The notes under the pieces were generated by a model. It did not search any database, was not told where the DNA came from, and saw only the letters and a program-made list of their open reading frames with translations. The translations under genes and the position numbers were made by a program. A DNA stretch of 64,000 nucleotides from Candidatus Latescibacterota bacterium (GTDB lineage: Bacteria > Latescibacterota > UBA2968): NCBI GenBank assembly GCA_965208125.1, contig OZ242320.1:1824001-1888000 (forward strand), in the 5' to 3' direction. Below are positions 1-22,617 of the stretch, piece by piece; within the stretch, counting starts at the first letter, position 1; every line of letters starts with the position of its first letter.

Positions 1-306
1 CTCTTCTTTAGAATTAAGAAATCGGTCAATGTACTGTTCAAGTAGCTCCAAATCTTCTGTGAGGGATCCATATAAACGGTCGTCAAAGTCAAAGATAGTT
101 TCTTTTTGGGCTGGTGGGAGGTCTGGATCTGGTACAAGATCGTCAATTGAGCATCCTATGGTATAAGCCCATTGTTTCAATAGATCAATAGGGATATCTC
201 CGCTGGCCTCATATCTGGATACCCGGGCCTGAGTAATCTTAAGAGCTTCCGCAAGGTCCTTTTGCTTTAATCCCGATTCTTTTCGAAGGTCTGCTAGATT
301 CTTCAT
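1..306 (-). CDS. XRE/Cro-family HTH protein, N-terminal part (continues beyond window start)
   Basis: Not in ORF track. Hand translation from ATG at 306 (RBS AAGGAG upstream) gives MKNLADLRKESGLKQKDLAEALKITQARVSRYEASGDIPIDLLKQWAYTIGCSIDDLV..., an HTH_3 pattern. The frame stays open to base 1, so it is probably a multidomain fusion. Confidence 0.85.
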   Translation of the reverse strand, partial: MKNLADLRKESGLKQKDLAEALKITQARVSRYEASGDIPIDLLKQWAYTIGCSIDDLVPDPDLPPAQKETIFDFDDRLYGSLTEDLELLEQYIDRFLNSKEE

Positions 307-365
307 AATTAAGTCTCCTTTTGGGTACGTTGTACCATCTGCGAAGATGGCACAACGTGGAAAAA

Positions 366-674
366 TTACCTACCAGCCTTTCGACCACCACCGCCAGCTC
401 TTTGGTTCAGTGGAGGATTATGCTGGACAATCTTGGCTTGCTCATGGACACGGCGAGTTGTAGATGTACTTCTGCCATCCGCTCTCTGCCAGGCAAAAGT
501 ATGGGTCTCACGCGGTGCCAGGCCCGTACGACGATGTTCTCCAATTCTGCGATTCAGGTTCACAGTTTCCCCAAAGTAATCCACCTTGCCACTTTCATTA
601 TTGATGGCACGATAGAATCCGGGGGCATTGGGCGGCTCTTGCGTAGAGGGCCGCCCGCGTTTAGTAATGGCCAT
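366..674 (-). CDS. Small stand-alone GIY-YIG nuclease-like protein
   Basis: PGFY...DYFGETVNLNRRIGEH...E...NPPLN matches the GIY-YIG motif order; RBS TAGGAGG upstream. Confidence 0.75.
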   Translation of the reverse strand: MAITKRGRPSTQEPPNAPGFYRAINNESGKVDYFGETVNLNRRIGEHRRTGLAPRETHTFAWQRADGRSTSTTRRVHEQAKIVQHNPPLNQRAGGGGRKAGR

Positions 675-704
675 AAAAGACCTCCTAAAAAAGGATTGAG
701 ATTG

Positions 705-934
705 TGGGCTACCAGTTGCTCCGGTAGCCCGTGACTTACCGGCAGTTATACCGCCATCGCGGCGAAGTGCTGTCCGACGGTGATCAAAACCGTAGCGATG
801 ACGCTGTACAACACTTTGAGCAGTAGTGCGTGCATAGCTTTCTCCTTTTGGTTACGCTGGCTGTCCGAACAGGAAGAGCCAGAAAAGATGAGAGTTATGG
901 GCTACCAGTTTCTCCAGTAGCCCACGACTTACCG
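705..934 (-). repeat. Two 37-nt direct repeats (705-741, 898-934), each forming a GGGCUAC-GUAGCCC hairpin
   Basis: tgggctaccagttgctccggtagcccgtgacttaccg vs tgggctaccagtttctccagtagcccacgacttaccg, 33/37 identical; each lies just downstream of a micro-peptide stop codon. Confidence 0.9.
746..835 (-). CDS. 29-aa hydrophobic micro-peptide (copy 2)
   Basis: Hand translation MHALLLKVLYSVIATVLITVGQHFAAMAV*; RBS AAGGAG; paralogous to 935-1039. Confidence 0.7.
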   Translation of the reverse strand: MHALLLKVLYSVIATVLITVGQHFAAMAV

Positions 935-1039
935 CTACTGTGGCGGACGTCTATCTGCCATCGACGCGACGTGCTGCCCTATGGCCACTATGGCCGCGGC
1001 GAGAGCACTATACAGCACTTTTTTCCCAAGTGCTTTCAT
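935..1039 (-). CDS. 34-aa hydrophobic micro-peptide (copy 1)
   Basis: Hand translation MKALGKKVLYSALAAAIVAIGQHVASMADRRPPQ*; RBS AAGGAGG; shares KVLYS...GQH...MA with copy 2. Confidence 0.7.
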   Translation of the reverse strand: MKALGKKVLYSALAAAIVAIGQHVASMADRRPPQ

Positions 1040-1103
1040 GATTTTCCTCCTTTGCTATGCCCGCTACGCATTTCTGCGGGAAAAATGAAATGTGATTTCC
1101 CAT

Positions 1104-1132
1104 AAAGTAATATTGAAATTTTATTTTGTCAA
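1104..1132 (-). promoter_or_regulatory. Putative sigma70 promoter for the peptide-peptide-GIY-YIG-XRE operon
   Basis: Minus strand TTGACA (1132-1127), 17-nt spacer, TACTTT (1109-1104), in an AT-rich divergent intergenic region. Confidence 0.55.
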
Positions 1133-1431
1133 GTTATTTTTATTAATAATTGAGAAAAATTTATTGATTTAATCCTTAAAGCATAATCCCTACTTAATAT
1201 AAACGATAATTGATGGTTAATCGGATTACGGTGCGCCCACAATGTATTTTCCAATCACAAAACCCCGCGTTATTCGTTTCAGAGGGCGCACTCTTATTGA
1301 TGTTATGCCCGCCCGCAGGTCTTCAAAAGATATGCGACACCCCAAAGCGCAAGGATGTCTAAATGTCTGCGGGCGGTCAGCACTGGTGTTGGCCGTTGGG
1401 TTCAGGCTGTTGCTTCTTTCAGGAGGTTGTC

Positions 1432-2251
1432 ATGTCAGGTTCGTCGTTTGTGGTTCCGTCGGCTGTGTTCTCGGGGTTGTCCGCTCTGTCTGGCCCCGTG
1501 GCTGTTGTGGGGTCGCGTTCTTTGCCGTCTGCGGCGTTGCTTTCGGTTGCTCGGTTCGGTCGTTGGGTGGGTCGTTCTCGTCCGCTCTGGTCCGGTGGGG
1601 CGTTGGGCGTTGATAGCGCTGCGTCTGCTGGTGCTCTGGCGCAGGGTGGTCAGGTGTGCTGGTGGTTGCCGGCTGGGTTTGGCGAGTTGGCCGCTGGGTC
1701 TTCGTCGCCTGTTGTTCGTGGCCCGGGTGGGGTCTTTCCCGTCTCGGCGCCCCGTCAGTTGGCTCGTTCTGTTCGGTGTGTTGCCTGGTCGGGTGGGCCG
1801 TCTTCCGCTTCTGTGCCTTTCAGCGAGCGGTTGTTCCAGCGGTCGGTTTCGCTTCTTCTCTCGCTTCGTGGTGCGGGTGGTGGGTCTGTGGTCTGCTTCA
1901 TCTCTCAGGTTGCTCTTTCGGCTCGGCGTGGTGGGTCCTGGTTCACTGTCCGTCGTGCTTTGGGGCTTGGGTTCCGGCCTGGCCGCGTCGTTGTTCGTTG
2001 TGCTCGTTGGGCCTGGCGGTTTTTCGCTTTTGTCGCCGGGGGCTGTGGTGTCCGCCTTTTTCGCTCCCTCTTCTTCTCAGCAGTCTCTCTTCACTCCCGA
2101 GCAGCTCGTGGGTGCGCGTCCGTCTCTCTTCCCGCCGGTGTCTCCTTCTGGGTCCCGTCGCGATCCGCATGGCGAGCGGTTTGATTCTCAGTCCGTGTGT
2201 GGGCCGTTGTCTCAGGCGTTCTGGCTCGGTTTCCGGTTCAGGTCTGGTTAG
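1432..2251 (+). CDS. DprA/SMF-like (SLOG superfamily) protein, extremely adenine-poor, probable frameshift near 1987
   Basis: RBS AGGAGG then ATG 1432; VAVVGSR, SGGALGVDSAA and GGSWFTVRRA are the DprA/SLOG Rossmann motifs. This frame stops at 2184, but another frame (ending 2251) carries a more plausible tail, SLFVVLVGPGG...QQSLF. Confidence 0.7.
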
Positions 2252-2418
2252 GGTTTCTGGCCCTTCGGCCGCGGTCCATGTGTCGCATGTATGGCGATAA
2301 TTATGCGTGCATTTGTCGCCTTCTATACGTCAGTTGTCCACAAAAAGATACCGCGCTCCCGATAGCAGGAACGCGGCACTGAGTTGTTTTAGGGAATTAT
2401 ATCCAATGTTAGCCAATA

Positions 2419-3230
2419 TCAAAACTGTGATTCTTTTGCTTTTTTGGTTCTTTCAGCTTCCCTTTTTTCGCTTTGGGAACTCCTATGCTGCCAATAGCCT
2501 TGAAAACGGTATTCAAGTTCTAATTGGTTGAAATCTCCAACTCTTTTAAAGGAGAGGCGAATTTCTTTAAGTTGCCATTTGTTATCCGCATCAAAATCGG
2601 ATTTTCTCCAAAGTTCACTATCGGAATCTTGCGCCACGCGTACCTGTTCAGCCTGATCAAAAATAAACATACCCGGTATCTTCAGCCCGAACCCCTCTTT
2701 ACCATACTTCCTTCTTATACTAATCGTAAGAATTAAGTTTGCCTGGTCTATTGCCTGCTCAAGCTGTCGCAGAGTCGGGAAAAGGATTTCCCTCCTACTA
2801 CTGCTTACTGTTGGAGCGGCATCCCTGCCGCGATCACCCAATTTCGAGAACCTAATGCAAGATTTCTATATCTGATTAGTATTAGAATGTCGCGTATTTC
2901 CCAATACTTCAATCTTGGGTTATCAATCTCCCATTCCAAACGGACGGCCAGAAGTCCACTCTTTGGCAAAATTTCAAAATTTATGTACTTGGCATCCTTT
3001 GGCATTTTGGGATTTCGGACATAAAAAGATTCAAGCCCGAATACCGTCGTGCCCCCGAGGTTCTCAATAGTGCCAAAGTCCAAAGCGCGAATTTCATCAA
3101 TAGTCATCCCCTTCTTGAGTCCAAAAATATCTGCGTCTCTGGCGTCGCCATACGCCAGAGTGAACACACAGACCACCCAAATTGAAATTGTCCACGCAAG
3201 ACCTATACGTTTCAACAGTGAAACCTTCAT
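2419..3230 (-). pseudogene. Exported hypothetical protein split by a 162-bp insertion
   Basis: Signal-peptide-like N-terminus and FGLKKGMT motif. Removing 2719-2880 plus one AT copy joins ORFs 2805-3281 and 2419-2841 in frame (...WEIRDILIRRKYGKEG...), giving ~215 aa. Confidence 0.75.
2719..2880. mobile_element. MITE-like insertion carrying REP-like palindromes
   Basis: Ends ACTAATC...GATTAGT flanked by AT on both sides. Internal motifs gtcgggaaaaggatttccctcctac and gagcggcatccctgccgcgat also occur, partly, at 37372-37456. Confidence 0.75.
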
Positions 3231-3556: not shown

Positions 3557-4714
3557 TCAACTTGTCCAACCGGCAGGATCACTATCGGATAGACAGGAGA
3601 AAAACTGGACATGTCCGCAGTGGTCACAGACAAAGACCTTAAAGGATTGGCTTCCCTTTGGTTCCAACCCAAAATTGCTTATAGCAATGGGATTTCCTCT
3701 ATTTATAGCCAGTTTGTAAATCCCGAAACCACAAACTCTGCATGGGCGACGTACAGTATCGCTCATTCGATCACCGCCAAGTTTCAAGACTTCGAGGAGG
3801 ACGTCAATCTCGTAGAGCAAGATCCTCGCATTTTTGAGGCAATCCCGTTCACGTTCAACAATGCATTTATCAAGCAAACCATTGAGAAGTCTCATTTCAG
3901 GTCTGCCGGGGAACATTGCCTCAATATTGTTCCCTGGTTCGCGGTGATACCAAAGATGTAAAAACGGCTTGCCCGATACTATTGCCCAGATGACTTTACC
4001 CAATGAAAATACATCGAAACTGGGGTTTATATCTTCTATGCGCCTGCGCATAGCCCATGGTGGCATCCAGTCGGTACTTCCCACGTTTTCAAGGGTGCCA
4101 CTGATTCTCGTATGTCCTGGATCCTCAAAGAACACGAGACCAAAGTCGCCGAGTACCAATTGTTCGTTCTCATCTACAAAAATGTTCTCTGGCTTGATGT
4201 CGCGATGAACGATTTGCTTTTCGTGTAAGGAGGCAACCCCTTCAACGATCGGTCGAATTGCAGTGAGGGCATGTTTTACTTGTCCGGTGTACCGATCAGA
4301 CCTGTTTTTCAAGGTTCCTTTTGGATAGTATTTCGAGACGAACCACTTTTCCTCAAAGTTGAGATCCACAACCTCCAGAAGGTTTGGGTGGTCGGCTTGC
4401 TGCATAGCTTCCAACTCGCGTTTTAGCCGTTCCTCTGCATCATCGAAATTCTGGGCTTCATCCGGCGAGTGTAGAATTTTGAGCGCACCGTGATTCACAG
4501 GGTTTTCAGCCTGCACAATTTCGGAAATGATTTTTCGCATCAACTTCATTGCCTTCGGGGCATTGTATAGTTGACCGGCCTGTTGGACTGCCTCAAATAA
4601 AGTATCCGCAAGGTCGTCCAAAGGGACCTCATGCTTATCCAAGACACGGATGACCTTCCCCTGTCCACCTTCACCAATCTCTTCAATTTCCTCCCAACGA
4701 TTTTCGTATTTCAT
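3557..4714 (-). CDS. Hanks-type Ser/Thr protein kinase with C-terminal Zn-ribbon
   Basis: GEGGQGKV, ALK, HRDIKPENI, DFG, DVFSLG; C-terminal CRVC...CDHC. Confidence 0.92.
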   Translation of the reverse strand: MKYENRWEEIEEIGEGGQGKVIRVLDKHEVPLDDLADTLFEAVQQAGQLYNAPKAMKLMRKIISEIVQAENPVNHGALKILHSPDEAQNFDDAEERLKRELEAMQQADHPNLLEVVDLNFEEKWFVSKYYPKGTLKNRSDRYTGQVKHALTAIRPIVEGVASLHEKQIVHRDIKPENIFVDENEQLVLGDFGLVFFEDPGHTRISGTLENVGSTDWMPPWAMRRRIEDINPSFDVFSLGKVIWAIVSGKPFLHLWYHREPGNNIEAMFPGRPEMRLLNGLLDKCIVERERDCLKNARILLYEIDVLLEVLKLGGDRMSDTVRRPCRVCGFGIYKLAINRGNPIAISNFGLEPKGSQSFKVFVCDHCGHVQFFSCLSDSDPAGWTS

Positions 4715-7287: not shown

Positions 7288-8394
7288 TTAGTCGCTCCGT
7301 TGTATTCTTTCGAGAAACCCGATATGCACCTGCTTCACTTGATCCAAAAATTCGCTAAATTCGCTCACATTCATTTCCTTAAGATTCGCAGTATCAATTG
7401 ATCCGACGGTGCATTCATTACCCCTCCTCATTTGAACTTTTCCGGTACAAAGTCCTTCTTGTTGGCGGGCTTCTTTGAAGCGATTTCGGTATTCATGTAC
7501 CACATCATAGTTTTCCCCGGCGTTGTTAAGGGAAATCATCAGCCGCAGCGGTTTCCATGAATCAAGTCGCCAATATAGATGCTTTGAGAACCAGTACTGC
7601 GTCCACGCACTACCACCCACATTTTTCCCCCTACCCAAGCCGTTCCAAATCCACTCCCAGTCTGGCTCCCTGGACAATTTGTCGGAGATAAAGTGCTCCC
7701 ATTCGCCATCCACGTTTCTCAGCACCTTACGGAGCTTCCGCATGAACTCCCATTGCACATAGTCTTGGTCAAGGTCCCATATCTCTTGGGCCTCGGCTCT
7801 CTTTTGTATCTTGTCGTTCAGATATTCTGTATACTGGCGCAGAATCTCGTTTTCCCGAATTGCATCCTGATGACAGTCGAGGAAATTTCTCAGATCTTTC
7901 GCTGCAAACAAGAAATATTTGTTCTTCTTAACGGCCCATCTTTCATCATTGAACACATACCCAGTCTTGAAATAGACAGGCTTAATTAGATCTTCTTTCT
8001 CTGCATCCTGACTGATAGAATCCAGATATCGTGCCAGTTGGTTACTGTGATCCCGCGTGTTTATTTTGTCTTCAATGAGGAAAGAGACCTTCTTCCCATC
8101 TACTCTGGCCTGGAAGTACACATCGATCTGATTGTACTGAGTGTAGGGCTTTCCCACATCGCTCACTTCGCAAGGCCCATTGTAGGGAGGAGCTATTCGC
8201 TTGCCGTCGGGGTCCAACACTGGAATGTCCCTGGTCCCATTCAATGCGCCTGCTCGAAAGAGCACGCGAACGAATGCCAACCCACACTTCTGGAGATTGC
8301 CAGTGGCCTCGGTGGCACAAGCAACAAGCCAGCAGATAAATGCGTCCTGCGAGAGTTCGCTTGTAGCGTAAGAGAAGATATTAGGAGTACTCAT
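7288..8394 (-). CDS. PD-(D/E)XK nuclease family protein
   Basis: PNIFSYATSELSQDAFICWL N-terminus, IDVYF...FLIEDK...QLARY nuclease motif. Confidence 0.85.
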   Translation of the reverse strand: MSTPNIFSYATSELSQDAFICWLVACATEATGNLQKCGLAFVRVLFRAGALNGTRDIPVLDPDGKRIAPPYNGPCEVSDVGKPYTQYNQIDVYFQARVDGKKVSFLIEDKINTRDHSNQLARYLDSISQDAEKEDLIKPVYFKTGYVFNDERWAVKKNKYFLFAAKDLRNFLDCHQDAIRENEILRQYTEYLNDKIQKRAEAQEIWDLDQDYVQWEFMRKLRKVLRNVDGEWEHFISDKLSREPDWEWIWNGLGRGKNVGGSAWTQYWFSKHLYWRLDSWKPLRLMISLNNAGENYDVVHEYRNRFKEARQQEGLCTGKVQMRRGNECTVGSIDTANLKEMNVSEFSEFLDQVKQVHIGFLERIQRSD

Positions 8395-8579
8395 GAAACC
8401 CTCCCTATTGTCGATGTCTTTCTGCGGATGATTGTCTTGGCAAAGGGCGACCGCCATCGCTCTTTACTGCCCAACGCTTATAAGCCTGAAAAACGGCAAA
8501 GTTCAGTATGAAAAATATCTATACCTTTTATAAATCAATACTTCGGACAGTTTTAGGTGTAGAGATTCTTTGAAATCAA

Positions 8580-9434
8580 TTATCTCCAATTCGTTTCGAA
8601 TATTTTGCATCCACCATTTCCAAGGCCCTCTATCGTTCCCACTTCTCTGAAAGATGCAGGTAGATCGCGTTTGTCCCCCTGGTCAGCCCCCCAGAACTTT
8701 GGACGCATAGCAGGCGACGCTCTTTGTATTGCACGGGGAAGCATTCCTTGTTTGAAGTCGTGCGTAGAGTCCCAAGACATAGAGAAGCCTCCGACTCTTA
8801 CAGCAAAAAAAATCTCAATTGGTATCTTATATTTCTGAAATATTTGCTCAAATATTAGTAGGTTTTCCGCTGCTACAAAAACTACGGGAAAAGACACTTG
8901 TTCTGAGTTGAAGCTAAGACGAAATAAAAAATAAACCAGATGCCAATCGTTATCAGGGACTGAATGAATTGATGACGACCAAGTTTCGTATGTTTTTTGG
9001 AAATTATTACGCTCATTATCTCCCCACAATTTCCATGGTATCATTTGATCGATAAATGCTTCACCATTTCCTACGAAATGCCGATAATCTCCATCCAAAT
9101 TACAATAAAATGGTGATCCTTCAACAAAATCGGCTGAACCTCTCCATACTCGTACGGGGCGATGATCAAGTTTTTGATACACATTTTTTAAACTATTAAG
9201 GTGATTGGGGTCATAATCGGACATAACCAAAATCGTATTCTGCAATTGTCTGGAAAGAAAATTCGGTACCTTACCAAGTGCTTTAGCAGCTATCATTGGA
9301 TATATATCCAGTCCAGATGAGGCATCCCAGACGATTTGATAGCGAGTGTTGATAGCTTCTGTCTTTATTTCATTCCATCTATCGCGGTCAGCACAGTTTA
9401 CAACGGTGATCTTCTCGAATAAATTTTTAATCAT
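8580..9434 (-). CDS. Hypothetical protein
   Basis: 284-aa ORF with RBS AAGGAG; no family recognised. Confidence 0.65.
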   Translation of the reverse strand: MIKNLFEKITVVNCADRDRWNEIKTEAINTRYQIVWDASSGLDIYPMIAAKALGKVPNFLSRQLQNTILVMSDYDPNHLNSLKNVYQKLDHRPVRVWRGSADFVEGSPFYCNLDGDYRHFVGNGEAFIDQMIPWKLWGDNERNNFQKTYETWSSSIHSVPDNDWHLVYFLFRLSFNSEQVSFPVVFVAAENLLIFEQIFQKYKIPIEIFFAVRVGGFSMSWDSTHDFKQGMLPRAIQRASPAMRPKFWGADQGDKRDLPASFREVGTIEGLGNGGCKIFETNWR

Positions 9435-9936
9435 TATATTCTCCTTTTTAGGTCGGGGTTATCCCCTGCCTAATGGTCAAGGGATGTTCTTGAGTTCCTC
9501 CGCGAGTTCCACAAGAGTATTCGGTACATTTTCATCTCCTCCAAGCACTTCTTCCCCTAGGTCGAAATTAGGATTTTTGAATAATTGAAGACCGATCAAA
9601 AAATGTCCGAACCATTAATAAATAAAATAGGCTACACCTATATCAATCAAGAACGTGATCTTTTCAACATTCGCATTATATAGTATGCCCCAACCCTCGC
9701 CAGCAGAACCCTGATCGCTTCCCTATACCCTCCCTAATAAAAACACCTGAATCCTGTCCTCGAAAGAAGCCCCCAACCCCACAAAACCTCTGTCGCTTCT
9801 CGATCATCTTACCGGTGGAAATTCCCAAATCCTTTTCTTATATGAAGCCCCCAACCCTTGCCAGCAAAACAAGAAGCACCAGCTACCCCACCCCATGCCG
9901 ATCTTACCCGTTGAGGGCAATCTTCGGCGAGAATTT

Positions 9937-10106
9937 ACGGTCACTGTCAAGAGGGGCAAGAACGTTCAAAACACAACAAAGTCCGGCGTCTTCGTGCTCC
10001 AAGCGGGGGCGCCATTTTTTTCGGTTCCCTTACGCCCCACCACCCCCCAACCCCAGGCTACGCCCAAAAAAAACGCCGCGGTGCTGCCACTCTTGACAGT
10101 GACCGT
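9937..10106 (+). promoter_or_regulatory. Long inverted repeat containing TTGACA (ssDNA/Frpo-like promoter candidate)
   Basis: acggtcactgtcaagaggggca (9937-9958) pairs 21/22 with tgccactcttgacagtgaccgt (10085-10106); TTGACA at 10093-10098. Confidence 0.6.
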
Positions 10107-10262
10107 GTGTAAAAAGTGTATTTAAAATCTGTCTGGAAAAGGCAGAACACCATAAAGGCAGATGGCTAATCCGTCAGTCGCCCTTCTTTGCTTTCCAATC
10201 GGGAAGTGAGGAAGGGCGTTTTCGTTGCTGGCGGATGGCTGTCATTTCACAGGAGGTTGGTT

Positions 10263-10505
10263 ATGCAGTCTGTCCGTTGTCTTACCGTTGGTCGTCGTTC
10301 TCGCCGGTGCTATATCGATCTTTCGACCCGTGATATGTACGGCAAGGTCGTTTATGACAAGATGAAGTCTGTTGATAATTCTTGTCCATTGCTCAGACTC
10401 TCTGGGCATTGGCTGGCTGAGGCTGGCTTTGAGATGGGCGATAAGGTGAAGGTTGAGGTCTCAAAAGGTCAGTTGGTTATCAAATTGAAAGGAGGATCGG
10501 CATGA
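10263..10505 (+). CDS. symE: SymE-family type I toxin (AbrB-like fold)
   Basis: RBS AGGAGG; CPLLRLSGHWLAEAGFEMGDKVKVEVSKGQLVI is the SymE consensus. Confidence 0.85.
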   Translation: MQSVRCLTVGRRSRRCYIDLSTRDMYGKVVYDKMKSVDNSCPLLRLSGHWLAEAGFEMGDKVKVEVSKGQLVIKLKGGSA

Positions 10506-10762: not shown

Positions 10763-11419
10763 TCTTATTTTTTTAATAGATGACCGTAGCAATCTTTTTA
10801 ACTGGCCTTTGGAAGTTCGTCTTCTATTTCGCTCTTCCTCTGTTAGATAGCCAGGTCCCGGTTCATCGAACATAGTGGTACGACCGTATTCCCTTGTAAT
10901 CCAATGATTCATTGTGTACTTGTTGCCCAGGGAATCATAACATTGGGGACGAAATCTTGCTGGTTGATCGTTCTCCTCAACTCGTAGCATTTCTACAACT
11001 TCTGTTTCATTATACAGTATTTGCATACTGTCACCGTACCCGAATCGTCGTGGCAAGGTAGAGTCTGGTAATTCACCATCCTCGGATTCGGTTATGGGTG
11101 AAATGATAACAATGGGTGCATTTAACCAATTACTGTCTTCTGGGATTCCTAATTCGAGATCGAAAGAAGTAATTGTAACTTCAAAAAAGCTTTCATTTCT
11201 GATAGAAAAGCCGACGTAGCGAGTGCCATTGTTGAACTTAGTATATGGCGTTATTATTATTTTTGGTTCTGTATTTCGTTCTTCCGCCTCTTTTAATAAT
11301 TGGGCTTGCTTTTTTGTATTTCGTGCTTGAGAATAGGCAGAACACGCAATGATAATTGTCAGGATTATCATTATGAATTCGTCTAATTCTACGGTATCAA
11401 AGAGTTCTAAAAGTTCCAT
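10733..11419 (-). CDS. Hypothetical protein with N-terminal transmembrane helix
   Basis: FIMIILTIIIACSAY hydrophobic segment followed by a soluble domain. Confidence 0.7.
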   Translation of the reverse strand: MELLELFDTVELDEFIMIILTIIIACSAYSQARNTKKQAQLLKEAEERNTEPKIIITPYTKFNNGTRYVGFSIRNESFFEVTITSFDLELGIPEDSNWLNAPIVIISPITESEDGELPDSTLPRRFGYGDSMQILYNETEVVEMLRVEENDQPARFRPQCYDSLGNKYTMNHWITREYGRTTMFDEPGPGYLTEEERNRRRTSKGQLKRLLRSSIKKIRSFLGLKLRY

Positions 11420-11500
11420 ATTGTTATCCTTAGAAATGGCTCAATGAGGCTTGCCTATAAGGGCAACCTGAGACCGACATGTGCTTTCTCTTTCCGGTAC

Positions 11501-11782
11501 TCATACCACTGCCTCCATATAGGGCCGCATCACATTGGTCATCCGACAGACTTGTGCGAAATGATAGAGGTTATCCAGAGAGGCTTTCCGTTCTCGAATG
11601 CAGTCTCGCAGGCTCTCAATAGCCACATCCAGACCGATCTTGTTCCGGTATTTAAAGCAGTCCGCCACGGTCTTGGCCGGATTGTATATCCGCACCTGGA
11701 TATGTTCAATGGTATGTGTTTCAATGCCCTCATCAAAGGCAGGCCCTGAAAAACGAGCAAACCGAATCTGCAGCCCATCCAC
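11501..11782 (-). pseudogene. AbiEi-family (type IV TA) antitoxin, C-terminal fragment
   Basis: IYNPAKTVADCFKYRNKIGLDVAIESLR...MRPYMEAV; the N-terminal HTH is absent and no intact AbiEii follows. Confidence 0.8.
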
Positions 11783-12070
11783 AGCCTTCCTGATGTTACA
11801 AATTGTCGATATTTATATATATACGTTTTCAGGCAAAAGTGCCATACTTTAAAACAAATAACTGTCGCGGAAAGTACTGTGACCTACAAGTCTTTTCTGA
11901 TGGGTAGTCCATTGACAAAACACCCTGAATTGGATATGATATTTTCATCACCACACGAATAAAATATCTTGAAAATTTTTGTGACTATTAAAAGCCCTGG
12001 CGGACAAATTTTCTTCAAGGGAGTTTGATGGCAACCGTCGGAGCTTTTTTTATAAAAAGAGGACTGTGTT

Positions 12071-13150
12071 TTGCTCGGGAAATTTACCAAACTTAATCTA
12101 TTCATATGCAGGTGGCGGAGGTCAAAAAATTCGCTGCTCAACGACAAAGTGCTTATCGAAGAAGCTCTCGGGGATTCGAATAGGCAGACATTTTGGTGTC
12201 GATCAAATCGCTTATTGATCTACCAGCTATCGGAGGCTGACGTAAAGCTCCTAAACGAAGTAATTGAGCAGACGACGCCTAAGTTAAAACCTTCCCAAAT
12301 CTATGCCATACCAGCTTCAAAGATCACCGAATGGTTCTGCGTGTTCGACATTGAACAAGCGAAATGTCACATAATCTACGTCCATTACGTGGACTATCGA
12401 TCCAGACAGACAAACATTAGAGAGGTGGTAAGATTCTCAAAGGAGTGTCATTCGCCGTGTCGAGCGGAAAAGCTTAGGCTTACTACGCCCTCGTACTATT
12501 GGGATCAAGAGAACCTACGGTCAGGAATCGCGGATCCCGATGAAAACACGCTGAGAAAGGATACCACACCTTTGATACGCGATCTTGCTCGTATTCCATA
12601 TGGCAGCAGCTTTAAATCAAAAGCTGTATTCTCGTCCTCCACCGAACCCTGGTTGTACTGCACATCCCATTTCCCTCTTCTTAGTATGTATAGGAAGCTC
12701 AAAATCAGGGTCTCAGATGAATATGATTACGATGCCGCGACGAAGATTGAAGATGTTAATGCTTTCGCGATGTGGTTGGGGATTGACTATGCGTTGCAGA
12801 TCGACAAAGGCAAATACCAGAATCTGGACGGTCTCAATCCGTGGGCTTCCTTGGCAATTAACGTCTCTCCGGACTTGAAACAACTGGGAGACTTAGAAAA
12901 AAACATCGACACAGTCGTACATGTTTATCACGGCCCCGTTCACTACGAGGATGAAGCGGGCATTATTGCCACAAATGACGATTTGGTGGATATCTACGTT
13001 CCCGAGAGAGCTTGTTTTACAAAGCGGACGGAATTCGAGGATCAAAGCGAATACCGCTTCGCGATATCGACGCCCGAAACTCCGGAAGACAAGTTTCTTT
13101 GGTTGGATGTATCTGAGGAACTTCAGCAACTCACGTCCCCAATGTGGTAG
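12071..13150 (+). CDS. Hypothetical protein (start uncertain)
   Basis: Long ORF with HGPVHY...FTKRTEFEDQSEYRF tail, a K..F..Q.E.R pattern seen in DUF2971/ART-like proteins (low confidence). Confidence 0.6.
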   Translation: MLGKFTKLNLFICRWRRSKNSLLNDKVLIEEALGDSNRQTFWCRSNRLLIYQLSEADVKLLNEVIEQTTPKLKPSQIYAIPASKITEWFCVFDIEQAKCHIIYVHYVDYRSRQTNIREVVRFSKECHSPCRAEKLRLTTPSYYWDQENLRSGIADPDENTLRKDTTPLIRDLARIPYGSSFKSKAVFSSSTEPWLYCTSHFPLLSMYRKLKIRVSDEYDYDAATKIEDVNAFAMWLGIDYALQIDKGKYQNLDGLNPWASLAINVSPDLKQLGDLEKNIDTVVHVYHGPVHYEDEAGIIATNDDLVDIYVPERACFTKRTEFEDQSEYRFAISTPETPEDKFLWLDVSEELQQLTSPMW

Positions 13151-15480: not shown

Positions 15481-15873
15481 ACCTGGCGTATCATGATGGA
15501 GCCAGATATTTTCAAACAATACAAAAGCCCGTTGATCATTATTGATCGACGGGCTTTCTTTTCTCTTTTCATTGACGCCAGCGCACCACAGGCATATAAG
15601 ATATTTTGGGATGCATTGGCTGAATAAATACAATAACGCGCGGTACCTACGTCAATTTCTCTTGGAACTGGCGATAAATTATGATGTCGCCATTATTGTC
15701 ACCCAAAAGCGAAAGTGAATCAGCCATGCTGGGACAAGTGTTGACAGATATCCGAAGAACGCTTTTTATAAAAACTTCTGAGAATATTCACTTGAAACCC
15801 GTGAGAATTAAAACCGGTTTCGGGTGGAAGGGATTTAACGAAATATTAAACGCCAATGGTAAGGAAAAAACTA

Positions 15874-18861
15874 ATGCGTAAACGGATTCTGGTCATCCTG
15901 TCAACATTCACGCTTTTGGTACACCCGCTGACTCTTTTGGCACAAAATAGCTTCTCTCTTTCGCTGGATGTAAATAGTACTACGGGCGATCAAGCTGCCA
16001 CGTCTATTAATGTGTCCGCAGATGGGGTTGTGACCATACAGATCTTTGGCAAAGATATTCAGAATGCGAATGGACTCGCTGTGCGTTTTGAATACAATGC
16101 CACACAGATTGTTTACGAAGGATTTGAGACAGGTGATGTGTTGCCCAATGCACAAACACTCACAGAACAGGGTACAAATCCGACTTTTGTGGAGATTAGC
16201 ATTGTGTCTTTTGGTGGTCAAGCCACGGTCAACAACGGTCTTGTGGGCACGATTCGTTTTCGCACGTTGGCTGCGTTTTCGGGCACTTCGATTCGGTTGG
16301 TGCGTGCTGATCTTGGCCGGGGTGGGCAAATTGAAAGCGCGACCTTGAATTTGCGCGTTGCGTTACGGTTACAACTTACATCGGACTTTAATGGCGATGG
16401 TCGAGTTGGCTTTGCCGACTTTTTGGCGTTTGCAGATCAGTTCGGGTCACGTAGGGGCGATGGGACGTATGAAGCCAGATATGATCTGGACAGCAACGGC
16501 GTAATTGGATTCTCCGATTTTCTGATCTTTGGTAATAGCTTTGGCAAAGAGGTATCTTCCCCTACCAGCGGTGGCGATGCGATGCAGGTTGTTATTCCAG
16601 ATGGGAATCTGCGCGCTGTTATTGAGGATAGCCTCGGTAAGGTGCGCGGTACACCGATCACCAGAGCAGAGATGGCGACCTTGACGAGACTTGAGGTGCC
16701 GAACAAGAATATTAGCGATTTGACCGGCCTTGAGTTTGCAACTGGGCTGACGAGACTTGATCTTGGTGAAGAGGTGGTGAATGGGTTGGGCAACAACAGC
16801 AATGAAATATCCAACCTCTCGTCTCTTTCAGGCTTGAACAACCTGACATATCTAAATCTTCGCAGGAACGAGATATCAGATGTATCCACACTCTCTAACT
16901 TAACCAACCTGACATATTTGAATCTTTCTTTGAACAAGATATCAGATGTATCCGCACTATCTAACTTAACCAATCTGACATATCTGAGTTTTTCTTTTAA
17001 CGAGATTTCAGATGTGTCCGTGGTATCTAACTTAACCAACCTGACAACGCTGGCTTTTGGCAGCAACGAGATTTCAGATTCAGATGTGTCCGTGGTATCT
17101 AACTTAACCAACCTGACAACGCTGTGGCTTTACAGCAACAATATCTCGGATATATCCGCACTATCTAACTTGACTAACCTGACAACGCTGTATCTTTACG
17201 ACAACAATATCTCGGATATCTCGCCACTACCAGGATTGACTAAACTGGATTCGCTGTGGCTTGGCAACAACAGCATCTCGGATATATCGCCCCTATCAGA
17301 ATTGACTAATCTGGAATCGCTGGATCTTTCCAACAACAGCATCTCGGATGTATCCGCGCTATCTAACTTAACCAATCTGACAACGCTGTGGCTTTATGAC
17401 AACAATATCTCGGATGTATCGCCCCTGTCAGGATTGGCTAACCTGGAATTGCTGGATCTTGACGATAATAGCATCTCGAATATCTCGCCCCTGTCAGAAT
17501 TGACTAACTTGAAAAGACTGTATCTTGACAACAACAGCATCTCAGATATTGCGCCATTGGTCGCAAACATGGGATTGAGTGAAGGAGATAATGTTAATGT
17601 GAAGGGCAACCCGCTAAGTGACACATCGCTCGACACGCACATTCCAGCCCTTCAGGGCAGAGAGATTGAGATTTCTTTTGATCCACTGCGAGTAAGTGAC
17701 TTTTCATTGCCAGTAGGCATCCCAGATGCGAACCTGCGTGCTGTCATTGAAGATAGTCTCGACAAGGCGAGCGGTGCGCCTATCACCAGGGGTGAGATGG
17801 TAACCATAACTCGCCTTGTGGCACGGAATGCGAACATTAGTGACTTGACTGGCCTTGAGTTTGCGACCAGTCTGGAATGGTTATCTCTTTCCTCTAACAG
17901 CATCTCGGATGTGTCTGCACTGTCCGGCTTGACCAATCTGCGAATTCTGAGTCTTTCCAGCAACAGCATCTCGGATGTGTCTGCACTGTCCAGCTTGACC
18001 AGTCTGGAATGGTTATCTCTTTCCTCTAACAGCATCTCGGATGTGTCTGTACTGTCCGGCTTGACGAGCTTGGAATCGCTTTATCTTTACAACAACTTCA
18101 TTTCAGATGTGTCTGCGCTATCAGGCTTGACCAGTCTGAGAACGCTGGATCTTGACTACAATGCGATCTTAGATGTGTCTGCGCTATCAGGCTTGACCAG
18201 TCTGGAATGGCTGGATCTTGCAAACAACTTCATTTCGGATGTGTCTGCGCTATCAGACTTGACCAGTCTGGAATGGTTATCTCTTTCCTCTAACAGCATC
18301 TCGGATGTGTCTGCACTGTCCGGCTTGACCAGTCTGAGAACGCTGGATCTTCAGTCTAACACCGTCTCAGACCTCTCGCCTCTCTCAGGTCTGCCTAACC
18401 TGAGAGAGATTTGGCTTGCTGGAAACACCTTCTCGGATATCACACCCCTGTCAGGCTTAACCAACTTGACAGTGCTAGATCTTCAGAGCCTCGGTATCTC
18501 GGACATCTCTCTACTGTCAGGATTGACTAACCTGGAAACGTTGCATCTTAACAACAACAGCATCTCGGACATCATCCCATTGGCAGGCTTAACCAATCTG
18601 GAAAAGTTGACACTTCGCAACAATGCCATCTCGAACATTGGCCCCCTGGTCGCAAATACGGGATTGGGTAGTGGCGATGAGGTTGACTTGAGGAACAACC
18701 CATTGAGTGCCGATTCAATCAACCGATACATTCCATTTCTTCAGAGCAGAGGAATCACGGTAATATTTAGCGCGTCGAAATCCGCGGTGGTGAAGGAAGA
18801 ACGGGACATAACCCCTGTGGTAGAGGAATGGAAAACAGACGACTATATTTACCACAGATGA
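15874..18861 (+). CDS. Secreted cohesin + EF-hand/dockerin-like + internalin-like LRR protein
   Basis: Signal peptide; cohesin-like Ig domain; DFNGDGRVGFADF and DLDSNGVIGFSDF; two blocks of 22-aa LxxLxLxxNxISDxSxLS repeats. Confidence 0.9.
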   Translation: MRKRILVILSTFTLLVHPLTLLAQNSFSLSLDVNSTTGDQAATSINVSADGVVTIQIFGKDIQNANGLAVRFEYNATQIVYEGFETGDVLPNAQTLTEQGTNPTFVEISIVSFGGQATVNNGLVGTIRFRTLAAFSGTSIRLVRADLGRGGQIESATLNLRVALRLQLTSDFNGDGRVGFADFLAFADQFGSRRGDGTYEARYDLDSNGVIGFSDFLIFGNSFGKEVSSPTSGGDAMQVVIPDGNLRAVIEDSLGKVRGTPITRAEMATLTRLEVPNKNISDLTGLEFATGLTRLDLGEEVVNGLGNNSNEISNLSSLSGLNNLTYLNLRRNEISDVSTLSNLTNLTYLNLSLNKISDVSALSNLTNLTYLSFSFNEISDVSVVSNLTNLTTLAFGSNEISDSDVSVVSNLTNLTTLWLYSNNISDISALSNLTNLTTLYLYDNNISDISPLPGLTKLDSLWLGNNSISDISPLSELTNLESLDLSNNSISDVSALSNLTNLTTLWLYDNNISDVSPLSGLANLELLDLDDNSISNISPLSELTNLKRLYLDNNSISDIAPLVANMGLSEGDNVNVKGNPLSDTSLDTHIPALQGREIEISFDPLRVSDFSLPVGIPDANLRAVIEDSLDKASGAPITRGEMVTITRLVARNANISDLTGLEFATSLEWLSLSSNSISDVSALSGLTNLRILSLSSNSISDVSALSSLTSLEWLSLSSNSISDVSVLSGLTSLESLYLYNNFISDVSALSGLTSLRTLDLDYNAILDVSALSGLTSLEWLDLANNFISDVSALSDLTSLEWLSLSSNSISDVSALSGLTSLRTLDLQSNTVSDLSPLSGLPNLREIWLAGNTFSDITPLSGLTNLTVLDLQSLGISDISLLSGLTNLETLHLNNNSISDIIPLAGLTNLEKLTLRNNAISNIGPLVANTGLGSGDEVDLRNNPLSADSINRYIPFLQSRGITVIFSASKSAVVKEERDITPVVEEWKTDDYIYHR

Positions 18862-20166: not shown

Positions 20167-20214
20167 TAAAAAATGGTAAAGTTGATATACCATCATTCCA
20201 AGGAGCATCTAATC

Positions 20215-22617
20215 ATGCCAAACGACAACCCCCTCACAAGCGTAAACGCAATCGAAGCGTATAGCATCCCCTCCGAATTACCCATGCTGGTGACATCTGA
20301 AGTGGTGATCTATCCCCTCATGGCCGCCCCCTTGTTATTGGAAGACGAACGCGCGGTAAAAGCCGCGCAAGCGGCAATAGACGCTGGGCACAAAGTAATC
20401 GCCATCTTTGGAGAACTGGAAGAAAGCGACGCCGAAGAAGACATCCGCCGGGAGTCCCTGTATCCCGTAGGCACGGCAATCTACATCGCGCGATCCGCGG
20501 ACATGCCCGATGGCCGCATGCAAGTGCTCGTACAGGGCATGGCGCGACTATCACTCATAGATGTATTGCGATCGCAACCTTATCCCATAGCGAAAGTTGA
20601 GAAAATAGCATCAGAAATAGAACACAACACCGAATTGGAAGCACTCGCGCGCAATATATTCGGTCAGTTCAAAAAAGCAGTGGCACTCGCCCCCAATGTA
20701 CCCAGAGAAGTCGGAGCAGCCTTAGACGCCCTCTCAGAAATAACCCACAAGGCAGACTTCATCGCCTCACAACTCAACGTGGGATTTGAAGATCAACAAA
20801 AAATATTAGCCGAGCGCAATCTGTATCGGCGACTGGAAGCCATCAATCAATTCCTCAATCGCGAAGTTGAAATTCTGGAACTGCGCGAAAAAATCAGCTC
20901 AGAAGCCGCGGGAACCATGGAAGACGCACAAAAAGAGTATTTTTTGCGCCAGCAACTGCGGGCAATTCAAGATGAACTGGGTGAAGGAGAGGATATCGGT
21001 GCCGAAATCGAAGAACTGCGCGAAAAAATCGAAGCCGCCAGCATGTCCGAAGAAGCAAAAACAGAAGCCGAACGCGAGCTAAAACGCATGGCGCGCATGC
21101 CCGAAGCCTCTGCCGAATACACCGTATCGCGCACCTATCTGGACTGGCTCGTCGAACTCCCGTGGAACAAAAAGACAAGCGATCAATTAGACATCAAAAA
21201 AGCCGAACGCGTCTTGAATGCAGACCACTATGGATTGGAAAAGCCCAAAGAACGCATCCTTGAGTACCTGTCCGTGCGCCAATTGAAAGACGACATGCGC
21301 GGACCTATCTTGTTACTGGTCGGCCCCCCGGGCACGGGCAAAACATCACTGGGCAAATCCGTGGCACGAGCACTCAACCGCGAATTTGTCAGAATGTCAT
21401 TGGGCGGCATCCGCGACGAATCGGAAATTCGAGGACACCGCCGCACCTACATCGGCGCACTGCCCGGACGCATCATACAGGGACTGCGGCGTGCCGGCAC
21501 AAAAAACCCCGTATTCATGCTGGATGAAATCGACAAACTCGGCGCAGACTTTCGCGGCGACCCCTCCGCAGCACTGCTGGAAGTCCTGGACCCGGCGCAA
21601 AACAACACCTTTGTGGATCACTATCTGGACGTCGCCTTTGACCTCTCAGAAGTCTTATTCCTCGCCACTGCCAACTCGCTCCACACAATCCCACCCGCAC
21701 TCATGGACCGAATGGAAGTACTGGAAGTCTCGGGATATACCGAAGCCGAAAAAATGGAAATCGCGCGTCGGTACCTGGTCAAACGCCAGATATTAGAACA
21801 CGGATTGACCCCCCAAAAGGCATCTTTCGACAAAGCCGCCCTGCAAGAAGTAATCCAGCACTACACCCGCGAGGCCGGGGTGCGAAATCTGGAGCGCGAA
21901 ATCGCAACCGTGACGCGCAAGATCGCCCGCAAATTTGCTCAGGGCCGCAAGCGACGCGTACACATCCATCAAAAAAACATCGCCGAATATCTGGGACCAC
22001 AAAGATTTCGCCACGAAGTAGCCGAAGAAGATCACGAGGTGGGCGTCGCCGCTGGCCTCGCCGTAACATCTACCGGTGGTGATGTCCTCTTTGTCGAAGC
22101 AACAGTCATACCCGGTAAAGGCGAGTTAAATCTAACCGGACAGGTCGGCGACGTAATGAAAGAATCTGCGCATGCGGCCATGACATACGTGCGGTCGCGC
22201 TGGCATGAACTGGGGCTAAACGCGCAGTTTAACAAAAACCAGGATGTACACGTACACGTACCTGCAGGAGCCGTACCCAAAGATGGTCCATCGGCAGGTA
22301 TTACCATGGCCACAGTCCTCGCATCGGTATTCACCAATCGGCCCGTTCGCAAAGACGTGGCAATGACAGGCGAAATTACACTGCGCGGCAAAGTACTGCC
22401 CATCGGCGGCGTACGCGATAAAGTCCTATCAGCACACCGCGCAGGTGTAAAAACAGTAATCTTACCCGAAGACAACCGCAAAGACGCACACGAAATACCC
22501 GATACAGCGCGCAAAGACATAAGGCTGGTATTTGCATCTCACATGGATCAAGTTCTGGAAACCGCCATCATGAAACGCCCCCGCAAGCCAATGGCTGAGG
22601 TGTTCAGTGTGAATTGA
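20215..22617 (+). CDS. lon: ATP-dependent Lon protease
   Basis: LON N-domain, GPPGTGKTS Walker A, LDEIDK, PKDGPSAG catalytic Ser motif. Confidence 0.98.
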   Translation: MPNDNPLTSVNAIEAYSIPSELPMLVTSEVVIYPLMAAPLLLEDERAVKAAQAAIDAGHKVIAIFGELEESDAEEDIRRESLYPVGTAIYIARSADMPDGRMQVLVQGMARLSLIDVLRSQPYPIAKVEKIASEIEHNTELEALARNIFGQFKKAVALAPNVPREVGAALDALSEITHKADFIASQLNVGFEDQQKILAERNLYRRLEAINQFLNREVEILELREKISSEAAGTMEDAQKEYFLRQQLRAIQDELGEGEDIGAEIEELREKIEAASMSEEAKTEAERELKRMARMPEASAEYTVSRTYLDWLVELPWNKKTSDQLDIKKAERVLNADHYGLEKPKERILEYLSVRQLKDDMRGPILLLVGPPGTGKTSLGKSVARALNREFVRMSLGGIRDESEIRGHRRTYIGALPGRIIQGLRRAGTKNPVFMLDEIDKLGADFRGDPSAALLEVLDPAQNNTFVDHYLDVAFDLSEVLFLATANSLHTIPPALMDRMEVLEVSGYTEAEKMEIARRYLVKRQILEHGLTPQKASFDKAALQEVIQHYTREAGVRNLEREIATVTRKIARKFAQGRKRRVHIHQKNIAEYLGPQRFRHEVAEEDHEVGVAAGLAVTSTGGDVLFVEATVIPGKGELNLTGQVGDVMKESAHAAMTYVRSRWHELGLNAQFNKNQDVHVHVPAGAVPKDGPSAGITMATVLASVFTNRPVRKDVAMTGEITLRGKVLPIGGVRDKVLSAHRAGVKTVILPEDNRKDAHEIPDTARKDIRLVFASHMDQVLETAIMKRPRKPMAEVFSVN

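Follow-up and report, generated by a model that had tools for sequence, protein, structure and literature searches.

An Adenine-Poor Gene in a Latescibacterota Genome

Near the beginning of a 64,000-nucleotide stretch of the genome of a Candidatus Latescibacterota bacterium (contig OZ242320.1, positions 1,824,001 to 1,888,000 of the forward strand; this whole stretch is called the window below) lies a gene, at 1432–2251 on the plus strand, whose sense strand is almost free of adenine. It contains 17 A in the 720 nt between 1441 and 2160 (2.4%) and none in the 175 nt from 1438 to 1612, which reproduces exactly the counts made in a preliminary description of this DNA. The entire 820 nt from 1432 to 2251 hold 27 A (3.3%) and the interval 1383–2270 holds 30, the mean of the window being 26.8%.

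Given the A fraction of the genome (0.244), so few A (at most 17 in 720 nt) would arise by chance with a probability of 1.4e-62. The lowest A content of any 500-nt segment in the 64-kb window is 2.2%, versus minima of 13.8–15% for C, G and T. Across the whole genome (5,747,750 bases in a single contig), only two places have any base below 6% in a 300-nt segment, and both are A-poor on the plus strand: the stretch described here and a paralogue about 98 kb upstream, 93.7% identical over 766 nt. The feature does not stem from an assembly artefact, an origin that the preliminary description had considered, because the same A-poor stretch recurs in contigs from many independent assemblies.

The core genome of the host has a very strong strand asymmetry at fourfold-degenerate sites, so that ordinary host genes already show a single-digit share of one silent-site base. 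Between 20000 and 64000 of the window, open reading frames (ORFs) on the plus strand (for example 20173–22617, 37529–38920 and 62127–63548) have 4–7% T and 44–52% C at these sites, and those on the minus strand have 9–11% A and 37–46% G. The A-free gene opposes this local skew, as the preliminary description had remarked.

As every stop codon (TAA, TAG, TGA) includes an A, each of the three plus-strand frames is open across the A-poor stretch. The antisense frames are open as well, and antisense "ORF families" therefore show up around such loci.

The gene copy in the window is not intact. Behind a Shine–Dalgarno sequence AGGAGG (1421–1426), codons 1 to about 184 (1432..1982) are read in the correct frame, include the GSR and SGGALGVD motifs, and are 98% identical to residues 1–185 of P0005, an intact 273-residue protein of the same family. 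A +1 insertion at 1981..1985, evident in pairwise alignments with locus L004 and with the paralogue, splits the match to P0005 across two frames; the same alignments show a 3-nt in-frame deletion at about 2011. The C-terminal part follows in the shifted frame (ORF 1355–2251), where 1985..2251 matches P0005 residues 179–273 at 90% identity, includes the conserved C-terminal tail RRDPHGERFDSQS..GPLSQ.FWLG (alignment A1), and ends at a TAG stop (2249–2251), whereas the frame opened by the ATG at 1432 runs into a TGA at 2184. The preliminary description thus needs correcting in one respect: in this copy, 1432–2251 is no longer a single intact frame.

Past the stop, an A-free 3' tail (2252..2277) carries a small GGCC-CTTC-GGCC hairpin (2259–2270). 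The first A after the stop is at 2278, and from there to 2391 a 3' flank of normal composition is kept among the loci closest to the window copy (the close clade), up to the end of the shared unit. The homology reaches 2338 in L004, 2391 in L005, 2325 in L007 and 2279 in the paralogue.

The window copy is, then, a decayed member of its family, with the frameshift near 1983 and with the core of an upstream hairpin (described below) gone. The frameshift may be a long-read indel error, but not the deletion in the leader, which reflects a genuine difference. The paralogue is decayed as well, being without its first 26 codons. Other copies have suffered too: in L007 (4490–10001), a 5.3-kb insertion interrupts the C-rich loop of the hairpin, and the gene has lost an internal part (window position 1770 joined to 2222), and in L011 (about 1760–1870) some 100 nt of A-rich DNA sit just past the start codon. 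Frameshifted versions are common among database entries (P0003, P0009, P0013 and P0030, as well as locus L016). As a stop codon is impossible without A, long ORFs survive a frameshift, and gene callers consequently report chimeric proteins.

The Encoded Protein Resembles DprA

The window protein matched the Pfam DprA family (PF02481) with an E value of 3e-6 and 27.0 bits, and P0005 with 26.1 bits, both under the curated cut-off of 29.6 bits; the other two plus frames of the stretch gave no Pfam match. The Pfam model recognized all 13 aligned family members (E ≤ 0.01; best 2.7e-8). As described earlier, the translation retains the motifs VAVVGSR, SGGALGVD and GGSWFT and contains no lysine, asparagine or tyrosine.

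Relatives are few. A search of 5.8 billion proteins returned 29, and a profile search of 1.84 billion representative sequences gave 23 at E ≤ 1e-10, which a gap separates from the generic DprA proteins; P0005 stands for a cluster of 47 sequences. In alignment A1 the residues G27, S28, R29, S54, G55, G56, A57, G59, D61, G167 and G168 are invariant. The core motifs of DprA (the GSR strand, the SG.A.G.D helix start and the GG(S/T) loop) are all present and align to the motif of Streptococcus pneumoniae DprA, and the family profile hit DprA in the PDB (3uqz, E 0.026).

An AlphaFold2 (AF2) model of P0005, computed with alignment A1, had a predicted template modeling score (pTM) of 0.66 and a mean predicted local distance difference test score (pLDDT) of 64.6, with values of 70–95 over most of residues 10–215; the C-terminal 60 residues were poorly predicted (pLDDT <50). 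When the model was compared with known structures, the best 37 VIA-align entries were all SLOG proteins, and Foldseek gave an E value of 5e-4. The highest VIA-align Z score, 13.3, was to a molybdenum cofactor carrier protein (2iz5), followed by 12.4 to three DprA structures (3maj and 4ljr among them, covering the R. palustris and H. pylori proteins; root-mean-square deviation 3.4–3.6 over 155–156 residues), 11.5 to S. pneumoniae DprA, 11.3 to ShosA (8zva) and about 10.8 to LOG.

Pfam, Foldseek, VIA-align and the AF2 fold thus agree with the preliminary assignment to DprA/SLOG, and the fold asked of structure prediction there was found. The protein is classed as DprA-like, a member of the SLOG superfamily (to which LOG, molybdenum cofactor carrier protein and YpsA also belong), and not as DprA proper, because it scores under the curated Pfam cut-off. 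A canonical DprA of 365 residues is encoded elsewhere in the host genome, by a gene with 24.6% A overall and 21.3% at fourfold sites.

Nonsynonymous-to-synonymous ratios (dN/dS, Nei–Gojobori) were 0.17–0.33 in 11 of 11 pairs, and in one frame only, which shows that the frame is translated and under purifying selection and that this is a real protein-coding accessory gene. Overlapping genes as the source of the open frames were considered and rejected: synonymous sites diverge freely to saturation, so no second frame is constrained.

The best-conserved part of the protein across clades is the C-terminal tail (P0005 residues ~215–273; window ~2079–2248), with the pattern RRDPHGER(F/Y)D.Q..SGPLSQ.FWLG; it holds most of the retained adenines, and no family matched it. 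A QSLF / QLSLPL motif in the linker is reminiscent of a sliding-clamp-binding peptide.

Adenine Avoidance Is Shared by the Gene Family

We collected DNA of 14 loci from genome and metagenome contigs, two of which (L010 and L011) carry an identical gene sequence and are not independent. Sense-strand A amounted to 0.2–8.6% in the gene versus 17.4–26.3% in the flanks, and the depletion ended at the gene borders in every profiled locus. At fourfold sites, 13 of the 14 loci had 0–6.2% A, the remaining one being L016 (10.1%), which has lost its frame and is read out of frame; 14 host ORFs, with 3861 such sites, had 21.6%. The most divergent locus, L020 (49% identity), has a single A in 486 nt.

Between clades, synonymous sites have diverged to saturation (dS 1.6–2.6), yet A has been kept out. 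Within the close clade, L004 and L005 differ at 31 fourfold sites, and just 3 of these differences involve A. A-containing codons are kept at 19 of 280 alignment columns, mostly at conserved D, E and Q positions. In the window copy, the claim that the few A's fall mostly in codons requiring them is correct for 11 of the 14 A-containing codons among the first 184 (M, D, five Q, two E, I and T) and fails for three (TCA and two AGC).

The other three bases follow no common pattern. At fourfold sites, G and T prevail in the close clade (T 43%, G 40%, C 16%, A 1%) and G and C in the distant clade (fourfold C 21–37% in 10 loci, leaving aside the frameshifted L016), and L020 is C+T-rich, with 22% fourfold G. 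Loss of A is therefore the sole compositional trait common to all clades.

The depleted zone is not confined to codons. In 10 intact loci, the A fraction was 19.2% (420/2189) in the upstream hairpin, 6.5% (44/680) between the 3' base of the hairpin and the start codon (64–89 nt), and 2.9% (87/3000) in the first 300 nt of the coding sequence, and the start codon itself was GTG in seven of the 10. Because the A-poor zone begins about 65–90 nt 5' of the start codon, the constraint acts on the nucleic acid and not on codons. The unit thus has an A-poor transcribed body that extends from there to just past the stop, with a thymine-free template strand. The avoidance is family-wide, specific to this gene, and held through saturating synonymous divergence, and the nucleotide-level constraint proposed earlier is borne out by the low fourfold A of 13 of 14 homologues and by their A-poor 5' untranslated regions (5'UTRs).

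Two more distant relatives behave otherwise. P0042 and P0044 (E 6e-24 and 6e-18; 33% and 29% identity), whose composition was judged through an amino-acid proxy, have shares of A-requiring residues of 0.37 and 0.33, versus 0.01–0.13 in the A-poor members. The expectation that homologues would be A-poor was accordingly borne out for the 14 loci and not for these two, the most distant relatives, and their ordinary values suggest that the purge arose inside a family of small DprA-like proteins.

These data bear on two explanations that dispense with selection on nucleic acid. The first supposes selection for an unusual protein (for example, one free of lysine and of low complexity), or else a non-gene that stays open merely through the lack of stops. 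The absence of K, N and Y from the close clade, the openness of all three plus frames and the frameshifted chimeras produced by gene callers (P0003, P0009, P0013, P0030) could all be read in this way. However, protein selection cannot cause A to be scarce at fourfold sites and in the 5'UTR as well, the distant-clade proteins do contain K, N and Y and their genes are still A-poor, and a dN/dS of about 0.2 in one frame only, together with the DprA motifs and the SLOG fold, is not what a non-gene would show. We consider this account largely refuted and barely credible.

The second explanation invokes a mutational process aimed at the gene, either adenine mutagenesis of the retroelement type or deamination of an exposed strand. 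The G+T-richness of the close clade at fourfold sites is in the direction expected from sense-strand deamination, and the rare A differences are mostly A/G. Spontaneous deamination, though, depletes C faster than A, and C is not depleted in the distant clade (21–37% at fourfold sites), L020 is C+T-rich, and the loss of A alone is universal. Moreover, A persists precisely at the conserved D, E, Q and H residues that cannot be encoded without it (19 of 280 columns), no conserved neighbor could carry out such a process, and the genome (96% complete, single contig) encodes no reverse transcriptase (PF00078). We regard a mutational origin as quite improbable.

Its particular forms were rejected one by one. 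The distant-clade and L020 compositions speak against strand deamination; a target of retroelement mutagenesis or of a diversity-generating retroelement would be at odds with the lack of PF00078 in the genome and with the sole other copy being an equally A-poor paralogue. Three further candidates were dropped: GT-richness as the selected property (for instance, through a preference of RecA), since L020 is C+T-rich with 22% fourfold G and only A loss is shared; replication-strand orientation, as the sign of the GC skew varies among the flanks without a pattern; and avoidance of single-strand-binding protein (SSB) as the cause of a T-free template, given that Frpo transcription is reportedly SSB-stimulated (PMC11541004).

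A Conserved Hairpin Lies Upstream of the Gene

The noncoding DNA 5' of the gene is conserved across all clades (alignment A3) and, in intact members, forms a long imperfect hairpin of 190–275 nt. Over its 43 pairs, 91.6% of the alignment cells are paired, versus 39–51% when the partners are slid, and 11 of the 43 pairs show compensatory changes, a number reached by none of 500 shuffles. The two longest helices recur in L020 with compensatory changes, as judged by eye on the sequence. The paired cells comprise 422 Watson–Crick, 5 G.T and 9 A.C combinations.

The next helix 3', H3, lies inside the A-poor 5'UTR and has an invariant G.U and further wobble pairs, as well as compensatory changes. 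In our reading, this difference in pairing indicates that the long hairpin acts at the DNA level and H3 at the RNA level.

In the window copy, a remnant of the upstream element occupies 1232..1353 on the plus strand and matches L004 9634–9755, L005 9665–9786 and L001 at 92–95%; it consists of a clade-specific 5' segment followed by the 5' arm of the long hairpin. Helices were defined on alignment A7, which places the 5' arm of H1 at 1308–1319, the complement of the −10-like box at about 1327–1332 and the end of the H2 5' arm at about 1353. The A-poor zone begins with the 5' untranslated stretch 1366..1431, which includes the 3' arm of H1 (about 1366–1376) and the G.U-containing stem-loop H3. 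The hairpin core, about 150 nt comprising the loop and the H2 3' arm, has been deleted between two short CGCAAG repeats, as compared with L004, L005 and L007 (alignment A2).

Folding of the minus strand as single-stranded DNA (ssDNA) gave −77.1, −62.5 and −56.1 kcal/mol (z scores of −6.0, −5.1 and −4.0). On the non-template arm of this minus-strand hairpin, a TTGC.. sequence occurs at the aligned place in 11 of 11 loci, and in 10 of the 11 it is followed 14–15 nt later by TAnnnT (TATCTT or TAAATT), inside an internal bubble; the pattern reads TTGCGT, 14–15 nt, then TATCTT or TAAATT. Each box matches the consensus at only three to four of six positions, with a short spacer between them. Opposite TAnnnT, the bubble's template side differs from locus to locus (by eye, not computed). 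The basal helix begins 7–8 nt past TAnnnT, and so does the A-poor zone. Conservation of the unit likewise starts at the hairpin base, with nothing conserved further 5' in the distant clade (by eye, alignment A3).

Among the 168 genomes of the phylum, the hairpin occurs solely with the gene: a search for the leader ahead of other genes in these genomes returned two 27-nt matches (E 5e-4 to 8e-4), which we took as chance. The conserved DNA-type hairpin thus belongs to the gene unit. It is not a leader peptide; the close clade has a small ORF, but similarity to distant loci runs across frame changes and stops, which argues that the segment is conserved as nucleic acid and not as protein. Nor is it a known RNA family, as Rfam gave no match at E ≤ 1 in window positions 1–3000 and only a chance-level one (E 0.62) in L004 8500–11198. 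A scan for sigma-70 promoters found no site in the units of L012 and L006, and one site 5' of the close-clade leader in L004.

An alternative to a role in DNA is that the selected object is the mRNA. An A-free message would resist A-dependent RNases or RNA-modifying toxins, or would be elongated under ATP depletion, and the upstream element would be a transcribed regulatory 5' leader. That the A-poor zone covers the untranslated ends fits any constraint at the level of the transcript. H3, with its invariant G.U and compensatory changes, is of the RNA type, and the 3' arm of H1 can pair either upstream (H1) or downstream (H3), in a switch-like manner. The sense RNA is also more structured (−0.38 kcal/mol per nt) than that of host genes (−0.24 to −0.34), contigs from RNA libraries bridge the leader and the gene, and some copies have genes of RNase-type toxins in their vicinity (SymE-like in four loci, PIN in L006).

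Against this, the leader itself has 19% A, so that an mRNA including it would not be A-free, and a ratio of 5 G.U to 422 Watson–Crick cells would be unusual for a functional RNA. There is no conserved sequence 5' of the hairpin base (alignment A3, by eye), the simple promoter scan was empty in two distant-clade units, and no particular RNase is conserved beside the gene. On balance, a message-level explanation is possible but somewhat doubtful.

Distribution and Genomic Context

The gene is sporadic: of 168 phylum genomes only 4 carry it, and within the genus 3 of 21 do. Named records with relatives are metagenome-assembled genomes of Latescibacterota, Poribacteria and Zixibacteria, and related sequence is present in runs from 12 studies, sponge metagenomes included. 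The neighbors differ at every locus and are ordinary chromosomal genes (Pfam scans of 20 of them gave unrelated functions): a sigma factor and a lanthipeptide synthetase, a DnaA_N-HTH and a CoiA-like protein, PIN/Phd, LacI and a TonB receptor, and two-component proteins. Beside the unit, the clades have no gene family in common.

A conjugative, plasmid or phage context was considered and rejected. This genome contains no VirB4, no type IV secretion system (T4SS) coupling protein and no MOB relaxase, there is no integrase within about 140 kb of the unit, and IMG/VR, PLSDB and a phage collection gave no match. The mobile-element setting suggested in the preliminary description agrees with an accessory, patchy gene (4 of 168 phylum genomes); its more specific suggestion of a leading region near oriT does not agree with the lack of transfer genes and of plasmid or phage matches, nor with the changing neighbors. 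ComEC and canonical DprA are present in the genome, and both are near-universal; they allow DNA uptake as a source of ssDNA and do not show it.

DarT is a thymidine-directed ssDNA ADP-ribosyltransferase. DarT genes occur, in places as two copies, in 44 of the 168 genomes of the phylum and in 10 of 21 genus genomes, versus 0 of 14 controls, but are absent from this genome and from three of the four carriers. The DarT-type attack envisaged in the preliminary description thus gains from the frequency of the enzyme in the phylum and loses from its absence here.

The first 20,000 nt of the window form a variable island ahead of the core genome, which begins at Lon (20173). The island encodes, on the minus strand, a putative helix-turn-helix (HTH) protein (1–306), a GIY-YIG-like protein (366–674), a protein with an HRDIKPEN motif (3557–4714) that we take to be of the kinase type, and a PD-(D/E)XK protein (7288–8457), along with HTH/Xre proteins and a 1001-residue leucine-rich-repeat protein with a dockerin-like stretch (15856–18861). 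A SymE-like toxin gene with a small upstream ORF is found on the plus strand (9815–10096 and 10188–10505; Pfam SymE_toxin, E 7e-14). This pair is kept near both copies of the A-free gene in this genome and also in L005 and L007, and was not found beside distant-clade members.

L005 is the only locus whose neighbors hint at DNA uptake or an episome. There, the unit is flanked on one side by the gene of a CoiA-like competence-type protein and on the other by that of a protein in which HTH_36 is joined to a DnaA N-terminal domain (10998–12185, minus strand, and 8179–9543, plus strand), a combination known from plasmid and phage replication initiators.

A Possible Link between the Hairpin and the Missing Base

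We tentatively favor, as a quite possible though by no means secure explanation, that the hairpin acts as an ssDNA promoter from which a thymine-free template is transcribed, the product being a protein that handles ssDNA. The unit would become single-stranded after DNA uptake, after transfer, or at gaps, and the promoter would form in the minus (template) strand. When this strand folds, the −35-like TTGC.. box would lie in duplex and the −10-like TAnnnT box in the conserved bubble, and the predicted transcription start would fall at the hairpin base, exactly where the A-poor zone begins. The host RNA polymerase would then copy the thymine-free template into an adenine-free mRNA, whose product would be a putative ssDNA-binding protein of the RecA-loading type. 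Being thymine-free, the template could render this first gene insensitive to a thymine-directed attack on ssDNA such as that of DarT. The preliminary description had pointed to ssDNA promoters as something to look for near such genes; a conserved hairpin with promoter-like boxes directed towards the gene is indeed there in intact members, while its promoter role is something we infer.

A bolder version of the proposal treats the roughly 1.3-kb unit as a self-contained "single-strand-first" cassette. It would enter as ssDNA, by natural transformation or another transfer route, be transcribed from its minus-strand hairpin promoter on a DarT-immune template, and supply its own DprA-like mediator to promote its rescue or integration. 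We consider this version rather unlikely as a whole.

Several observations weigh against an ssDNA promoter. The −35/−10 spacer of 14–15 nt is below the usual 16–18, and the boxes are weak, at three to four of six consensus positions each. The unit is linked to no known source of ssDNA transfer, as VirB4, coupling protein and MOB relaxase are all missing from the genome, and only one of the four carrier genomes has DarT, which this genome lacks. Promoters of this kind from F-type plasmids drive genes of ordinary composition, so a hairpin promoter alone does not explain the missing base. The helices of the hairpin could form in RNA too. Finally, two RNA-library contigs from two studies, X17 (L004 9628–10175) and X18 (L004 9853–10122), bridge part of the hairpin and the gene; if they derive from RNA, they imply some starts 5' of the predicted one, although they may represent DNA carry-over. 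In all, pieces of the unit turned up as low-depth contigs in four metatranscriptome runs from three studies; such contigs show neither strand nor ends nor level and may be DNA.

Another reason at the level of nucleic acid might lie behind the purge, such as the loss of every palindromic or bipartite restriction or methylation site with A or T in it, an unusual DNA structure, or the avoidance of protein binding, with the hairpin as a separate recombination or priming site. An A-free strand cannot hold palindromes that include A or T, and the unit is small (about 1.2–1.5 kb) and found in unrelated contexts, as a self-contained module would be. The template ssDNA is also weakly structured for its 63% G+C, at −0.10 kcal/mol per nt, like host genes of 43–49% G+C. 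But we found no specific support for any such reason, restriction avoidance would not require removing every A, and the coincidence between the start of the A-poor zone and the hairpin base points to a link between the two. An explanation of this sort seems unlikely.

Irrespective of the mechanism, the family is an example of selection acting on base content as such: one base stays out of a whole transcription unit despite saturating divergence, and an unusual amino-acid composition is the price. In practical terms, the six open frames of such stretches lead gene callers to chimeric and antisense proteins. If the proposed link between hairpin and composition is true, ssDNA promoters extend past conjugative plasmids to barely studied phyla, attack on incoming ssDNA becomes a testable question, with native versus recoded alleles, and base-purged genes offer a simple genome-wide search criterion for more such units. 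Should the cassette version hold as well, a whole-gene base purge would be a new kind of counter-defense, written in nucleotide composition.

Comparison with Known Systems

In the literature searched, which did not cover subscription journals, no prokaryotic gene is described as lacking a base, and we found no precedent for a base-purged bacterial gene family next to a conserved hairpin. The proteins themselves have closer relatives. With DprA/Smf (PF02481), the family shares the Rossmann-like SLOG fold and the GSR and SG.A.G.D motifs, but it scores under the Pfam cut-off and consists of the core domain only, followed by an unrelated conserved C-terminal tail (pLDDT <50); moreover, the host has a separate canonical DprA of 365 residues and normal composition. 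To our knowledge, no DprA with a base-purged gene has been described. PsyrA and ShosA, the DprA-like antitoxins of PsyrTA and ShosTA, gave partial PADLOC matches over the GSR..SGGA.G.D core (PsyrA with E 1.8e-10 to 6.4e-7 in four of four proteins, ShosA more weakly). These span only about 55–70 residues, however, and no conserved toxin gene stands beside the family.

Composition is known to be shaped by escape from sequence-specific nucleases, as in the avoidance of restriction sites or in engineered ACA-less mRNAs that resist MazF. What is removed in those cases is short motifs, whereas here it is one whole base from a transcription unit of about 900 nt.

As for the upstream element, published work describes ssDNA promoters as large stem-loops that rebuild −35/−10 boxes and are active only on single-stranded DNA (PMC12672017, PMC11541004, PMC13478746). 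Like these promoters, of the Frpo/ssi and ssp classes, the family has a large GC-rich imperfect hairpin 5' of an early-type gene, folding as ssDNA to as low as −77 kcal/mol, and the stem carries candidate −35- and −10-like boxes directed towards the gene. The unit differs in that it is not in a conjugative element and has no plasmid matches, weak boxes and a 14–15-nt spacer. Genes behind Frpo are not reported as base-purged: in a study of leading-region composition (PMC13478746), the words "adenine" and "thymine" occur 0 times.

The nearest analogy to the purge may be the ALREX-type adenine-poor tracts in the signal-sequence coding regions of eukaryotic mRNAs, where a depletion of A within the coding sequence is likewise read as a property of the nucleic acid (PMC3635865, PMC2100147). 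ALREX tracts are eukaryotic, extend over tens of nucleotides and serve nuclear export, and they have no tie to bacteria or to a whole gene.

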